Below are positions 50,520 to 54,413 of a DNA stretch of 64,000 bases, piece after piece (positions within the stretch are counted from its first letter, which is position 1; each line of letters opens with the position of its first letter). The translations under genes were made by a program, and so were the position numbers. Below the pieces are notes generated by a model, which made no database searches, was not told where the DNA came from, and saw only the letters and a program-made list of their open reading frames with translations. Origin of the DNA: Eubacteriales bacterium (GTDB lineage: Bacteria > Bacillota > Clostridia > Oscillospirales > QAKW01); contig JAZQJA010000042.1 of NCBI GenBank assembly GCA_045541455.1, positions 26,786 to 90,785 of the forward strand. Direction: 5' to 3'.

Positions 50520-51761
50520 TTAAGCCTTCCAAACAGCTTTAATGATGTTAACGATTTTCGGAGAGGTTCCGTACATAAGAACACCTACACGGTAGATCTT
50601 AGCAGAAAGAATTCCAATTCCAAAGGTAGATGCAACCAAAATGCCGATGGAAATCGCAATCTCATACCAAGGCACAGTACTCATAGCAATTCTTGTGAAC
50701 ATTGCCATCGGTGAAGTAAACGGAATGTAGGAACAAACTGTCATCAAAACATTGTCCACGCTGCCGCTGGTCATAGAGAAGATGACCACCATAAAGCCAA
50801 ACAGGAATAGGAAAGTTACAGGCTGAACAGCAGTATTGATATCTTCCAGTTTTGAAACTGTAGAAGAAATTGCACCATAGAGGAATGCATAAATGAGGAA
50901 TCCAAGCAGGAAGAACACAAGCATATATACAAACAGCTCGGGCGGAATATTGAAAATGGAGTCAATGATTCCGTTATCTCCCCAATAGGACTTATTCACA
51001 TTATAGAACACAAGTGCCGAGCCAAAGATGGCAACAAGCTGAACAAGACCTGCCATACAAGCCGCCAAAACCTTACCAAACATCATATTGATGGGCTTGG
51101 CGCTGGTGATAAGCAATTCCATAGCACGAGAGCTTTTTTCGGTTGCAACACTCATTGCTACCATCTGACCGTAAAGCAAAATAACCATATACAGCGCAAA
51201 AATCATAATGTAGGTGTAGAAGAAGTTTTGCATTTGGTCTTTACCAAGGCTTTCCACGTTACCGTCGATCTGAATACTCATAACACCTGCTGCATCCTCT
51301 GCAGACATACCGCCGCCTATCATAGCATTCATTTGATATATCTGTTGTAGTACGCCTGTGGCAATATCAGGGTTCATATCGTACATTGAAAGGTTATCAA
51401 CGTAATATGTGAACGAGGTTGCTCCGTCCATTACAAAAGCGCACTCTACATCACCGGAAGTAATTTTGTTCTTGATTACGCTGATTTCTGCATCTGTAAT
51501 CTGCACATCATAGTCAGTAAAGGATGCGGCAAATGTTTCTTTTACCATATCCGCCTGCGTAGCATCATCTGCCTTTACGAGCATAACGGAAAGGTCTGCT
51601 GTAGTATTAGAAGTATCGTCTGATTCAAACAAGGCTGTAATTCGAGGTAAGAACATAACGATGGCGATAACCACCATCAAAAAGATGGTTACACCGACAA
51701 ACGCTTTATTCTTGCCATAATTTTTAAGTTCAAATTTAAGTATTTTTCCAAACTGTTTCAC
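50520..51761 (-). CDS. ABC-2 type transporter permease (NatB/YhaP-like topology)
   Basis: An N-terminal TM helix is followed by a ~150-aa extracytoplasmic loop and a cluster of 5 C-terminal TM helices. It lies directly after the ATPase gene. Confidence 0.8.
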   Translation of the reverse strand: MKQFGKILKFELKNYGKNKAFVGVTIFLMVVIAIVMFLPRITALFESDDTSNTTADLSVMLVKADDATQADMVKETFAASFTDYDVQITDAEISVIKNKITSGDVECAFVMDGATSFTYYVDNLSMYDMNPDIATGVLQQIYQMNAMIGGGMSAEDAAGVMSIQIDGNVESLGKDQMQNFFYTYIMIFALYMVILLYGQMVAMSVATEKSSRAMELLITSAKPINMMFGKVLAACMAGLVQLVAIFGSALVFYNVNKSYWGDNGIIDSIFNIPPELFVYMLVFFLLGFLIYAFLYGAISSTVSKLEDINTAVQPVTFLFLFGFMVVIFSMTSGSVDNVLMTVCSYIPFTSPMAMFTRIAMSTVPWYEIAISIGILVASTFGIGILSAKIYRVGVLMYGTSPKIVNIIKAVWKA

Positions 51762-51764
51762 TCT

Positions 51765-52670
51765 TTAGACCTCCTTTGCAGCATCGCCTGCATATTCTAC
51801 GAAAATATCGTTGAGGGAAGGTTCATAAACCTTTACCTCGTCAATATCATAGTTTTCCACAAGGCGAGTCATAGTGGCTTTCTTTTCGGATGGTGAGCCT
51901 AAGCGAATAATCAAATCACCGTTATCCATAACAGTGCAGGAAGCGCCAAAATCAGCAATGATTGCATCGGGTGTTTCTGTTTTTACAACCAAACGGTCAC
52001 GGTGATAGTCACGCTTGATATCATGCAAATCACCGTGCAGAGCAACAACGCCGTTATTGAGGATAGCAATACTATCGCAAAATTCTTCTATGTAACTCAT
52101 TTGATGGCTGGAGAACAGAACAATTTTGCCCTTTGCAATCTGTTCCTTAACCACATCCTTTAACAGCATTGCATTTACAGGGTCCAGACCCGAAAAAGGT
52201 TCGTCAAGAATAATGATGTCGGGGTTGTGTGCAAGAGCGGTAATTAGCTGAATCTTTTGCTGATTACCTTTTGAAAGGGTTTCGAGCTTCTTGTTGCGAT
52301 ATTCCGTCATACCGAGACGACCAAGCCAATAGTCGATTGATTGCACGGCAGCTTTATGGCCCATTCCTTTCAGTTCTGCAAAATATGTAAGTTGATCAAT
52401 GATGATCTTTTTGGGGTAAAGGCCTCTTTCTTCAGGCAGATAGCCGATACCGATTTTGTTGTAATCGATGGGCTGACCGTCAATCAGCACTTCACCGCTG
52501 TTTGCGGGAAATACATCCATCAAAATTCGAATAGACGTAGTTTTACCGGCACCGTTTCTGCCAAGCAAGCCAAAGGCTTTGCCACCCTCAGCTTTGAATG
52601 AAACTCCGGTGAGGACTTTCTTCTCACCAAAGGATTCTTCTATGTTTTTCAGTTCTAAAATCATTTTCAT
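51765..52670 (-). CDS. ABC transporter ATP-binding protein (NatA/DrrA-like)
   Basis: Walker A GRNGAGKTT, signature LSKGNQQK and Walker B IIILDEP are present. The ATG at 52670 follows AGGAG. Confidence 0.9.
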   Translation of the reverse strand: MKMILELKNIEESFGEKKVLTGVSFKAEGGKAFGLLGRNGAGKTTSIRILMDVFPANSGEVLIDGQPIDYNKIGIGYLPEERGLYPKKIIIDQLTYFAELKGMGHKAAVQSIDYWLGRLGMTEYRNKKLETLSKGNQQKIQLITALAHNPDIIILDEPFSGLDPVNAMLLKDVVKEQIAKGKIVLFSSHQMSYIEEFCDSIAILNNGVVALHGDLHDIKRDYHRDRLVVKTETPDAIIADFGASCTVMDNGDLIIRLGSPSEKKATMTRLVENYDIDEVKVYEPSLNDIFVEYAGDAAKEV

Positions 52671-52671
52671 A

Positions 52672-53820
52672 TTACTCCTGTATGGTTGTTTTGCGTTTTG
52701 CAATCTCCATCAAATCTCTTTCAGATTCGATATCTTGCGAATAAGGATAGGTCTTTGCAACTTTTTCAAATTCACTCCTGATTTTCTCTGCCTTCACGGT
52801 GTCATTCTCAAAAAACAATGCAAGTGCATACTCAGTTCGAAGCACAGAGGGGAAACGCTTCATTGATTTCATAAATTTCTTCTGTTTTTTAGTCAGCATA
52901 TCCTGGATAACGTCCCGGCGGTTTTCTCCGATCAGCTCTACATAAATTCTATCGCACATTAGAAGGTCGTGATGAAGTCCAACAATACCGCTTTCAATTT
53001 CAAACAGGTGTGCTATAAGTGTATCCGCTTCTTCAAACTTTTCTTCATCCATAAGTCGATTGCAAGTGAACACACAGCGGGTAGCCACCATACTGTTTTT
53101 CATAGCTTCATCTGTTGGCACTGCAAACCATTCGGCAGGCATATCTCTAAGACGAACACCTTTTGAACTTTGTTCGCTAACTTTTAGTTGAACCCAAAAG
53201 GCTTCTACTGCTTCTTTGTTTTTTGATAAAGCAAAGGCATTGTATCCATCATTGTCAACCATTCCCATACGCATCGGTATGCCATTCATCATAGCAGTCA
53301 TAAATCCAACTACTGCAAACATGAGAAGAAGCGGTGAAAGGAATGGGACATTGGAGCAAAGCAAATAGCCAGCTAAGAACAAAGTACCAAGAATGATATT
53401 GATAAATGAGCCGCCAAGGTTATATAACACAAGTGGTATTTTGCCGTCCTTCATATCAGGGGGAATCATAAGACATTGACCGCCCGTTCCGGCTAAACTA
53501 AGTCGTTTTAATTTAAGCTTTCCGTTTTCCTTTAACCACATAAAAGAGGCAATGCGGAAGGAACTGAACTTATATCCCGTCATCAAACCAAACAAAAGGT
53601 GCCCTGCTTCGTGTACGATCAGATGAAAAAACAACGCAACGTACATACCAATGAATAGTCCTGCAAAGGAGAAAAGTTCTTGGTATAACGGTGTATCTGC
53701 CTGGGATTTGTCAAGATACGAAACCATCACAACACCGCAAATTGCTCCAATCAGCATCATAAATGCCATTCCTATGTATTGCTGCCAAACTATTTTTTTC
53801 TTTTTCTGATTTTGACTCAT
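52672..53820 (-). CDS. Polytopic membrane protein with an intramembrane HExxH motif (putative zinc metalloprotease) and a helical C-terminal domain
   Basis: HLIVHEAGHLLFG lies in a predicted TM helix. A downstream MNGIPMRMGMVDNDG motif resembles the second metal-ligand motif of site-2 proteases. The start overlaps the upstream XRE stop (ATGA). Confidence 0.6.
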   Translation of the reverse strand: MSQNQKKKKIVWQQYIGMAFMMLIGAICGVVMVSYLDKSQADTPLYQELFSFAGLFIGMYVALFFHLIVHEAGHLLFGLMTGYKFSSFRIASFMWLKENGKLKLKRLSLAGTGGQCLMIPPDMKDGKIPLVLYNLGGSFINIILGTLFLAGYLLCSNVPFLSPLLLMFAVVGFMTAMMNGIPMRMGMVDNDGYNAFALSKNKEAVEAFWVQLKVSEQSSKGVRLRDMPAEWFAVPTDEAMKNSMVATRCVFTCNRLMDEEKFEEADTLIAHLFEIESGIVGLHHDLLMCDRIYVELIGENRRDVIQDMLTKKQKKFMKSMKRFPSVLRTEYALALFFENDTVKAEKIRSEFEKVAKTYPYSQDIESERDLMEIAKRKTTIQE

Positions 53821-54413
53821 TTTTCTTTTACCTCATAAGCGCATTTTGTAAATTTCCAATTTCCTATTTCAAACTTTTCTGCTGTAATGCGTTTTGCAAG
53901 CTGACGGGTTTCAATAAATTCGTCGGTTATGGTAACAAGGAATTGTTTACCGTCCTTTTCAACAAGATAGAACTCCTTGTCCATATTCTTAAAGCTGTTA
54001 ATAAGCTCAGGTGTGCCAAACGGTGCATCGGTAAAGAATCCGAGAAGATTATCAATGACTTTTTCACTTTTTGTCAGTTTGAGTTTGCCAAGTAAAGTAT
54101 GTATCTGGGCATCGGGAAACTTTTCATAGATCACACGGTCTTTTTTCTTTTTCTTAATACCTTTACCATAATCTGAAAGGTTGTAAGGCTCACGCATTAC
54201 AACTTCATCAATTACTTCACCATCATCCAGCAGATAATCAACACTCACATTTAGGAGCTGTGCCAATGCTTTCAAATTATCTACATCGGGAAGTCCGTTG
54301 TTTGCTTCCCATTTTGCAACAGCAGATCGAGATACTGCCATTTTCTCAGCAAGCTGCTCTTGGGAGAAACCACATTGCTTTCTTGCTTCTTTGATTTTTT
54401 CGCCTAATGTCAT
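53817..54413 (-). CDS. XRE-family HTH transcriptional regulator with an unknown ~130-aa C-terminal domain
   Basis: The HTH reads LGEKIKEARKQCGFSQEQLAEKMAVSRSAVAKWE. The ATG at 54413 lies 8 nt after GGGAGG. Confidence 0.75.
   Translation of the reverse strand: MTLGEKIKEARKQCGFSQEQLAEKMAVSRSAVAKWEANNGLPDVDNLKALAQLLNVSVDYLLDDGEVIDEVVMREPYNLSDYGKGIKKKKKDRVIYEKFPDAQIHTLLGKLKLTKSEKVIDNLLGFFTDAPFGTPELINSFKNMDKEFYLVEKDGKQFLVTITDEFIETRQLAKRITAEKFEIGNWKFTKCAYEVKEK

Follow-up and report, generated by a model that had tools for sequence, protein, structure and literature searches.

Several systems are known in which a membrane protease works alongside an ATP-binding cassette (ABC) exporter. The yydFGHIJ operon of Bacillus subtilis encodes the membrane protease YydH with the ABC transporter YydIJ (PMC7026026), and it is tied to the cell-envelope (Lia) stress response (PMC7026026, PMC8144471). 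Eep with PptAB in Enterococcus faecalis (PMC4173765) and RasP with EcsAB in B. subtilis (PMC2996298) are two further precedents; in these, membrane peptides are produced or cleared by an intramembrane M50 protease, in a pathway that also requires an ABC exporter (PMC4173765, PMC2996298, PMC10202637). A comparative-genomics study of the PSP system published operons joining Toastrack (DUF4097/LiaF) genes to an ABC transporter and a transcription factor, the examples using GntR or RHH regulators (PMC11237479), and YdbST protects B. subtilis against amylocyclicin (PMC8144471). XRE regulators, site-2 proteases (S2P) and ABC-2 pumps are likewise each known individually. Here we describe an operon in which an XRE-family regulator, an intramembrane HExxH protein and an ABC-2 exporter are encoded in succession. 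It lies in 64,000 nucleotides (nt) of DNA from a Eubacteriales bacterium (Clostridia; assembly GCA_045541455.1, contig JAZQJA010000042.1, positions 26,786 to 90,785 of the forward strand); this whole stretch is called the window below. The locus is a mosaic of whole-gene cassettes and not a fixed four-gene system. Its stable frame is the XRE regulator plus the ABC-2 pump, and the protease is one exchangeable cassette in between. Our reading, which we put forward tentatively, is that the locus is an accessory operon for envelope stress or detoxification, recombining in gut Clostridia, with the protease as a co-regulated effector beside the pump.

An earlier reading of the nucleotide letters alone (the original prediction) had proposed four minus-strand open reading frames (ORFs) here, and all are present.

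53817–54413, minus strand: XRE-family regulator, 198 amino acids (aa), with a helix–turn–helix (HTH) at aa 1–65 and a C-terminal domain of ~130 aa; Pfam HTH_3.
52672–53820, minus strand: intramembrane HExxH protein, 382 aa; Pfam PF02163, motifs and AlphaFold model.
51765–52670 (probable start 52664), minus strand: ABC exporter ATPase, DrrA-like; Pfam ABC_tran and DrrA1-3_C.
50520–51761, minus strand: ABC-2 permease, 413 aa; Pfam ABC2_membrane_3.

The junctions are tight. As read from the sequence, the ATGA at 53820–53817 is the XRE stop overlapping the start of the HExxH protein. The HExxH-protein stop (52674–52672) is followed after 1 nt by an ATG at 52670 and after 7 nt by an alternative ATG at 52664, and the orthologous ATPases are called from the equivalent of the latter (MILELK). 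The permease GTG at 51761 comes 3 nt after the ATPase stop (51767–51765) and has AAGGAGG 9 nt upstream. The ATGA overlap is therefore as originally described, while the spacing, given then as 0–4 nt, measures 1–7 nt according to which ATPase start is taken. For the XRE gene, a start at 54413 is favoured because GGAGG lies 8 nt upstream of it and an earlier ATG at 54419 is not kept in relatives. A consensus scan placed no terminator-like hairpins at the three gene junctions and gave promoter-like and terminator-like matches within coding sequences.

The operon was compared with two sets of loci, cited by number. The protease-anchored set holds 80 loci from species-representative genomes and two more, 82 in all, carried by gut Clostridia (Acutalibacteraceae, Oscillospiraceae, Lachnospiraceae, Christensenellaceae); the pump-anchored set holds 80 metagenome loci. 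The cassette boundary is sharpest against L083. There the XRE gene with its promoter (window 54514–53823) is 90.8% and the pump (52665–50520) 90.7% identical at the nucleotide level, and the homology stops exactly at the protease gene start and resumes at the ATPase start, the 1.15-kb protease gene being swapped for a LiaF-like and a DUF4097 gene. Contigs of an abundant relative, which carry the protein P0273 (listed in 152 blocks of the collection), encode an XRE protein, a LiaF-like protein (225 aa), a DUF4097 protein (271 aa), an ATPase and a permease. In this LiaF-type sister operon the XRE is 97% and the pump proteins are 96% identical to those of the window in aa sequence, the ATPase taken by itself also 96%; P0271 is an XRE protein 100% identical to that of the window. 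LiaF and DUF4097 are both present in L083–L092, L169 and L032, L169 having the order XRE (209 aa)–LiaF–DUF4097–pump. The pair lies upstream of the pump in 8 of the 80 pump-anchored loci, and most of the others have none of the queried cassettes upstream.

The protease slot and its surroundings vary in further ways. A Ruminococcaceae metagenome-assembled genome (L170–L173) has the arrangement XRE–protease–pump–bPH_2–bPH_2–XRE2–HTH, with the XRE, protease, pump, bPH_2 pair and second XRE protein (XRE2) found in L170, L171 and L173. Over a 4.0-kb module, the window is 90.7% identical to L170 at the nucleotide level in a different genomic context, and the 2-kb bPH_2 pair is missing from the window. 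L005 has a 92% identical protease and the bPH_2 pair, with neither XRE nor pump. L032 has LiaF-like, DUF4097, protease and pump genes together; L099 is syntenic with it, and a 49-aa ORF fills the protease slot there. We considered whether that ORF is a protease remnant left by a deletion and rejected this, as it is unrelated. Two small membrane proteins are coupled to the pump in L093 and L104. An MmeI-family restriction-modification gene lies ~4 kb upstream of the LiaF-type sister operon in L083–L088 (positions 1–1613), and a DDE transposase is inserted near that operon in L087, which fits a variable, accessory region.

An accessory origin had been suggested from the start, and it is borne out by the ~91% nucleotide identity in a different context, by the presence and absence of parts cassette by cassette, and by a G+C content of 39–42% in the operon against 31–36% in most of the flanks. 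The gene neighbourhoods show that the operon is not a universally conserved core. A role of the stress or immunity type, suggested at the same time, fits the alternative cassettes, namely the LiaF-like, DUF4097/Toastrack and YdbST-like bPH_2 pair. The idea of an orphan immunity or stress module is thus partly supported, in its accessory nature and its envelope-stress cassettes; the analogies drawn for it with ImmR/ImmA, CylI and LanFEG, which are taken up below, are not supported.

How closely the protease belongs with the pump is a separate question. An orthologous pump lies directly downstream of the protease in only six of the 82 protease-anchored loci (L001, L003, L004, L011, L032, L068), leaving 76 without it, and the protease is in none of the 80 pump-anchored loci. 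Taken together, these absences mean that the protease needs no pump in cis. The immediate neighbours of the protease family are diverse: 137 Pfam families among 150 neighbours, with ABC_tran the commonest (8 of 150), which speaks for the pairing, then HTH_3 and a family of GNAT acetyltransferases (5 each). Within three genes of the protease, 5 loci have a MatE pump and 5 an OmpR-type regulator. The absences and the diversity of neighbours would be expected if there were no functional link, the protease being a general housekeeping membrane protease that recombined into a cassette-exchange hot spot before pump genes. The 92% identical protease of L005, with no XRE or pump, and the acceptance of unrelated small genes by the same slot point in that direction too. 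Set against it is the recurrence of the adjacency. The protease and the pump adjoin in the same orientation, with gaps from an overlap to 17 nt, in the window clade, L011, L032 and L068. The proteases of L032 and L068 are 56% identical to that of the window and sit on distant branches of a neighbour-joining tree, whose deep branches are poorly resolved; recurrence beside an orthologous pump at that distance is unlikely for a random neighbour. The XRE–protease ATGA overlap and tight spacing are also kept in L001 and L170. The linkage may be either ancient or repeatedly gained, and adjacency kept or regained across so large a divergence argues for some functional relation. We consider the absence of any link unlikely.

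The HExxH protein comes from a very large Clostridial family. Its members are mostly solitary and keep the catalytic motifs. At 50% identity, 3336 cluster representatives are related to the window protein, 1174 of these with E below 1e-30, and species-representative genomes contain at least 583 stretches that match; among the matches listed, nearly all are ~380 aa long. The match to Peptidase_M50 (PF02163) is 29.4 bits against a cut-off of 27.2. The AlphaFold model, built on a 63-member alignment, has a mean predicted local distance difference test (pLDDT) score of 95.4. It has two N-terminal membrane helices, the second of which (aa 45–80) holds HEAGH (aa 70–74), then a four-stranded sheet at aa 84–119 and helices at 131–154 and 161–180. 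NGIP (179–182) ends the latter helix, DNDG (189–192) follows directly, and from aa ~195 to 382 the model is entirely helical. The original description of HEAGH inside a transmembrane helix, of a second NGIP...DNDG motif and of a helical C-terminal domain is in agreement with these motifs and the model. In the alignment of 63 diverse members, conservation is 90% or more at H70, E71, H74, N179, G180, N190, D191 and G192, and P182 and a GTGGQC motif with Cys116 are invariant. The second motif thus has the form known from S2P/M50 enzymes, whose third zinc ligand is an Asp in an NxxPxxxxDG/LDG-type motif at a second membrane helix. More widely, among 143 full-length representatives of 50%-identity clusters, HExxH is kept in 142 and NxxP...DG in 130, so that the HExxH residues, whose loss among homologues would have spoken against the original proposal, are conserved.

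The remote-homology search suggested for this protein gave a divided answer. Foldseek matched the model best to the Methanocaldococcus jannaschii S2P (3b4r, probability 0.91) and Aquifex RseP (9j82, probability 0.97), with E = 0.08–0.34 and partial coverage, and its C-terminal helical domain weakly to the tetratricopeptide repeat (TPR)-like proteins alpha-SNAP/Sec17, ComR and Rap; no solved S2P was among the profile-search matches, and sequence and profile searches returned nothing useful among solved structures. None of the sources searched had a family name for the protease or the other cluster proteins. PADLOC matched neither the protease nor the permease and elsewhere gave merely generic HTH and ATPase matches. 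Our assignment of the protein to the S2P (M50) family, as an enzyme with a cytoplasmic TPR-like domain, is predicted from the motifs and the model, and the evidence for it is supportive without being strong. The conserved motifs predict that the enzyme is catalytically competent. A relative that could be studied in a cultivable strain is encoded on the Enterococcus raffinosus ATCC 49464 megaplasmid (L174, ORF 4893–6023; NZ_CP104763.1, around 502.4–503.5 kb): it has 376 aa, 30% identity and the motifs HEAGH, GSSGQC and NGVP...NDG, and it is solitary, with no ABC pump adjoining.

At the head of the operon, the XRE protein has a Pfam match (HTH_3, E = 1.7e-17) at aa 7–61 alone, leaving the other ~130 aa without one. 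The gene content is thus that of the original description, an HTH with an unannotated C-terminal domain; the homology search meant to place that domain returned near-identical proteins and nothing else. Among the matches listed, the best 120 clusters for the whole protein are 93–100% identical; the C-terminal domain is present in 845 clusters, with an identity of at least 93% in the best 120 of those listed. That domain is nearly invariant whichever cassette adjoins. AlphaFold gave no trustworthy model of it (mean pLDDT 58, with blocks below 62 towards the C terminus), and the result is unusable because the alignment is shallow, the homologues being 86–97% identical to the window protein. Two elements lie upstream of the gene.

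54497–54513, strand not specified: perfect palindrome TGTTAC-N5-GTAACA, a candidate XRE operator at the left edge of the XRE cassette.
54448–54476, minus strand: candidate sigma-70-type promoter, with −35 TTGTTC at 54476–54471, a 17-nt spacer and −10 TAAAAT at 54453–54448.

Among eight XRE-bearing loci, the upstream similarity starts abruptly at the palindrome. In these, GTTTATTGTT (which contains TTGTTC) and TAAAAT are invariant and the 17-nt spacer varies; GGAGG then follows. The palindrome has a single exact match in the window, where sites differing from it at one or two positions occur no more often than expected by chance and no other operator copies were found. We infer that the palindrome is the operator of the XRE protein, and that the cassette brings its own promoter, probably of the sigma-70 type.

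The HTH of this regulator has ICEBs1 ImmR as its nearest solved relative (7t8i, E = 1.7e-10), and the stop/start overlap with the protease gene implies co-expression. Both facts suit anti-repression of the ImmR/ImmA type, in which the metalloprotease would cleave the XRE repressor and de-repress the operon. SpoIVFB shows that an S2P can cleave a transcription factor precursor that is not an integral membrane protein. The remaining evidence runs the other way. ImmA-type proteins are soluble M78/COG2856 enzymes, whereas the protein here is a polytopic M50/S2P with no ImmA/IrrE match in Pfam or NCBIfam. The XRE protein has no predicted membrane segment, and an XRE with 97% aa identity stands beside LiaF/DUF4097 with no protease. 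Within the protease-anchored set, XRE occurs in two loci (L001, L003) with a 30-codon remnant in L004, leaving 79 of 82 proteases without it. There are no integrase or mobile-element genes nearby. This part of the original prediction is not supported by the comparison, and we regard ImmR/ImmA-type anti-repression as very improbable.

Another XRE gene lies beyond the pump.

49595–50395, minus strand: XRE2, second XRE protein, 266 aa; Pfam HTH_3; a separate cassette.

It begins 124 nt after the permease gene and is closed by a terminator-like hairpin at 49588–49567. After the HTH come ~19 consecutive hydrophobic pentapeptide repeats G-[LVA]-[FLI]-[SA]-x (G-x-x-S-x) and a 50-aa tail; the repeats may form membrane helices or a hydrophobic beta-helix. 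The XRE2 block is 91% identical at the nucleotide level to a block downstream of the pump in L170, near-identical XRE2 proteins are encoded downstream of the pump in L091 and L092, and P0398 and P0402 are XRE/XRE2 chimeras in the HTH region. To judge from these sequences, XRE2 is a separate cassette travelling with the island (L091, L092, L170).

XRE2 or a similar protein could be the target if the protease were a sensor or transducer, acting by regulated intramembrane proteolysis of a membrane-tethered regulator, or by docking the XRE protein at the membrane via its helical domain. S2P enzymes classically free membrane-tethered transcription regulators (PMC10202637), and the same slot is taken elsewhere by LiaF/Toastrack proteins, for which a role in assembling sub-membrane signalling complexes has been proposed (PMC11237479). 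Membrane-anchored XRE-type proteins are frequent neighbours of the pump (L108, L129, L142, L091, L092, L024, L044), XRE2 travels with the island, and the cytoplasmic domain of the protease weakly matches the peptide-binding regulators Rap and ComR. However, XRE2 is also found in LiaF-type operons that have no protease (L091, L092), and the near invariance of the XRE C-terminal domain across cassettes means that there is no partner-specific co-variation. The neighbours of the protease (the 137 Pfam families among 150) show no enrichment for sigma/anti-sigma pairs or membrane regulators, and the transmembrane nature of the XRE2 repeats is not established. A sensor role of this kind seems to us rather unlikely.

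The pump is composed of a DrrA-type ATPase and an ABC-2 permease. None of the four cluster proteins passed an NCBIfam model; the ATPase gave partial matches to the drrA and GldA models below their cut-offs. The permease matched ABC2_membrane_3 (E = 5e-42), with DUF7287 as its one other Pfam match, had no NCBIfam or Protein Data Bank sequence match and nothing useful in searches of solved structures, and has 399 related stretches in metagenome contigs. No solute-binding-protein domain was found by Pfam in the five cluster proteins, and the next genes on the two sides are one for a GDSL lipase and a divergent one of apparent LacI type; the pump is for this reason taken to be an exporter; the make-up is that of a DrrAB/NatAB-type ABC-2 exporter. 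The original naming of the genes as DrrA/NatA-like and YhaP/NatB-like therefore holds for the DrrA-type ATPase and the ABC-2 permease, and at the Pfam level only for the likeness to NatAB. The proposed analogy with LanFEG exporters fails: the lantibiotic-protection ATPase model TIGR03740 scored 121.6 bits against a cut-off of 309.75, and there is one permease gene only, where LanFEG transporters have two permease subunits. Neither has the analogy with CylI-type proteases any sequence support, as a tblastn search of 72,556 plasmids at E <= 1 brought up no match from E. faecalis, in a collection whose inclusion of the cyl plasmid was not verified.

The NatAB-type architecture raises the alternative that the operon exports a cation (Na+) or answers ionophore stress in the manner of NatAB/YhaQP, with the leader RNA described next sensing an ion or small metabolite and the protease incidental. 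The pump pair alone behind the leader is the commonest arrangement among leader-bearing loci (L112, L113, L130, L146, L164), and many of the carriers are from the ruminant gut, a setting of ionophore use (NarAB being a precedent, PMC7010723). Against this, there is no sequence link to NarAB plasmids, the best plasmid-borne permease relative being 33% identical and from Paenibacillus; the LiaF, Toastrack, bPH_2 and S2P cassettes indicate stress from peptides or at the envelope, not ion stress; and the leader matches no Rfam family, known ion riboswitches included. An ion or ionophore pump is in our view quite improbable.

Upstream of the XRE cassette lies a candidate cis-regulatory RNA, which recurs in front of several operon variants.

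54551–54673, minus strand: conserved structured leader RNA, with a P1 stem around a variable P2 and a small conserved P3, then an intrinsic terminator.
Other loci (~120 nt): L001, 7150–7272; L005, 5838–5959; L169, 5329–5451; L089, 3479–3586; L011, 2481–2588.
Other loci, continued: L112, 3181–3288; L130, 2138–2258; L146, 4288–4405; L141, 502–619.

The structure predicted by RNAalifold on seven sequences is a three-way junction, with a P1 of 13–15 bp, the variable hairpin P2 and the small conserved hairpin P3; the terminator scan closes it with an intrinsic terminator hairpin at 54578–54557 and a U-run. With a covariance model (R1) built after BLAST, the fetched loci and the window yielded 19 matches at E < 1e-5, every one of them on the strand of the operon. 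Wherever the downstream sequence was read, the leader directly precedes the ribosome-binding site that serves the first gene of an operon variant. It precedes the pump alone in the five loci just named, LiaF–DUF4097–pump in L089, protease–pump in L011, protease–bPH_2 in L005, the XRE cassette in the window, L001 and L004, and TfoX_N...XRE–LiaF... in L169. In an alignment of 12 sequences, which had been fitted to the model, 94% of cells are paired as against 40–52% in slid controls, and 11 pairs are changed on both sides; none of 500 shuffles reaches the observed values. The single-sequence fold has a minimum free energy of −41.9 kcal/mol (z = −5.0). Rfam 15 has no family reaching its gathering score, the best being tsr26 at 20.7 bits against 141. 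A search for a leader peptide or an antiterminator turned up neither a conserved ORF nor an obvious antiterminator, and all constrained folds contain the terminator. In several loci the terminator is too close to the ribosome-binding site for a promoter to fit in between, so that the leader must act as a transcription attenuator. We regard it as a candidate new attenuator or riboswitch. A second terminator-like hairpin (54691–54713, minus strand), GGGGTAACTATACCC followed by a T-run, is found just upstream of the leader and is conserved in L001, L005, L141, L146 and L169; the promoter of the leader must overlap or follow it.

In the envelope-stress or detoxification operon that we tentatively propose, the soluble XRE protein, as repressor or activator, would most likely bind TGTTAC-N5-GTAACA before its own promoter. 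A second control would come from the leader, through which upstream transcription has to pass, ending as it does in an intrinsic terminator. The ABC-2 exporter would most likely clear a membrane-active compound or peptide from the membrane. The slot between regulator and pump would take interchangeable membrane-protein cassettes, the protease here, and a LiaF-like plus DUF4097/Toastrack pair, or both, in sister operons. The protease most likely would cleave membrane-embedded peptides, either foreign membrane-active ones or leftover signal and peptide fragments, and the pump would then expel its substrate or products. The envelope-defence reading is favoured because the partner cassettes (LiaF, the LiaG-type Toastrack proteins and the YdbST-type bPH_2 pair) typify envelope stress and defence against antimicrobial peptides in Firmicutes and because precedents exist for a protease with an ABC exporter.

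A number of results weigh against this proposal. No substrate, peptide gene or inducer of the operon was identified. The loci in which protease and pump occur without each other, in both sets, suggest that the two may be independent. The S2P assignment leans on motifs, a predicted structure and a Pfam score barely above its cut-off, with the profile search finding no solved S2P. The XRE C-terminal domain yielded no reliable model from which to read a fold or a signal input. The palindrome is ~20 nt upstream of the −35 and not over the promoter, so repression is not self-evident. A link of the permease to a characterised resistance pump such as NarAB (ionophore resistance) was also sought and not found, its best plasmid-borne relative being the 33% identical one. 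A more ambitious version would make this a plug-and-play envelope-defence locus, in which the S2P–TPR protein and LiaF/Toastrack are interchangeable partners of the pump, the XRE C-terminal domain reads the pump or its partner, and the three-way-junction leader, as riboswitch or protein-dependent attenuator, gates the whole operon family. We think it improbable that all of these parts will hold together.

The operon sits among housekeeping genes, with pheST, alr, a mazF-like gene, a GDSL hydrolase (lipase) and a tRNA-Leu on one side and MgtE and a MiaB-like enzyme on the other. The neighbourhood has no gene for a peptide precursor or a modification enzyme, in accord with the original remark that no bacteriocin precursor or modification gene adjoins. 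From their translations, a divergent gene at 55052–56017 appears to be LacI-type and a gene at 56074–57843 exporter-like. The tRNA-Leu repeat "scar" that had been tied to the accessory origin turns out to be a local tandem duplication with a 203-nt period (49137–49541). It includes the last ~18 nt of tRNA-Leu(GAG) (49070–49154) and repeats a 38-nt palindromic terminator (49154–49191, 49357–49394) and a second hairpin (49240–49264, 49442–49466); we found no sign that it bounds the operon island. The gene directly behind alr (end at 47691) encodes a MazF/PemK-type toxin (47789–48145, plus strand). The two are 97 nt apart, and no ORF of at least 20 aa lies between them on the plus strand, so no adjoining MazE-type antitoxin gene is apparent.

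These results give a very large unnamed intramembrane protease family a testable context in envelope stress and export, with the member in E. raffinosus ATCC 49464 open to culture. The whole-gene cassette exchange among gut Clostridia bears on the possible spread of resistance to bacteriocins, host peptides or feed ionophores, and the leader adds a candidate new cis-regulatory RNA with covariation support.

Compared with the systems from which we began, the operon most resembles different ones in different parts. With ICEBs1 ImmR/ImmA it shares an XRE-type HTH gene, nearest to ImmR, immediately before a HExxH protease gene; it differs in having a membrane M50 rather than a soluble M78 enzyme, a pair that is not co-conserved, and no mobile-element context. 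DrrAB, NatAB/YhaQP, LnrLMN and NarAB share with it the DrrA-type ATPase with a C-terminal domain and the ABC2_membrane_3 permease; the curated NCBIfam models all fall below cut-off, and there is no close plasmid-borne relative. In Eep/PptAB and RasP/EcsAB, the protease and exporter genes are unlinked. Proteases of the RasP, Eep and RseP type carry PDZ domains, and the window protease has a TPR-like domain instead; EcsB has its own Pfam family, and the window permease matched ABC2_membrane_3 and DUF7287 only. Like yydFGHIJ, the locus puts a membrane metalloprotease and an ABC exporter in one operon. Unlike it, it has no precursor peptide or radical-SAM epimerase gene and is led by an XRE regulator, and its protease carries a helical cytoplasmic domain in addition and comes from a different family, whose members mostly stand alone (YydH and YydJ being compared by description). 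The sister operons L083–L092 and L169 have the make-up of the Toastrack–ABC operons, with an XRE regulator, and their XRE and pump proteins are 96–97% identical to those of the window. The window lacks their LiaF-like/Toastrack (DUF4097/DUF2154) genes and has the S2P-type protease in their place. As far as the literature was searched, what is new here is the S2P-with-TPR-like family as a large, uncharacterised, mostly solitary group, the cassette mosaicism at the nucleotide level, the structured leader RNA, and the use of an S2P-type protease as an alternative to LiaF/Toastrack in the same regulator–pump frame.

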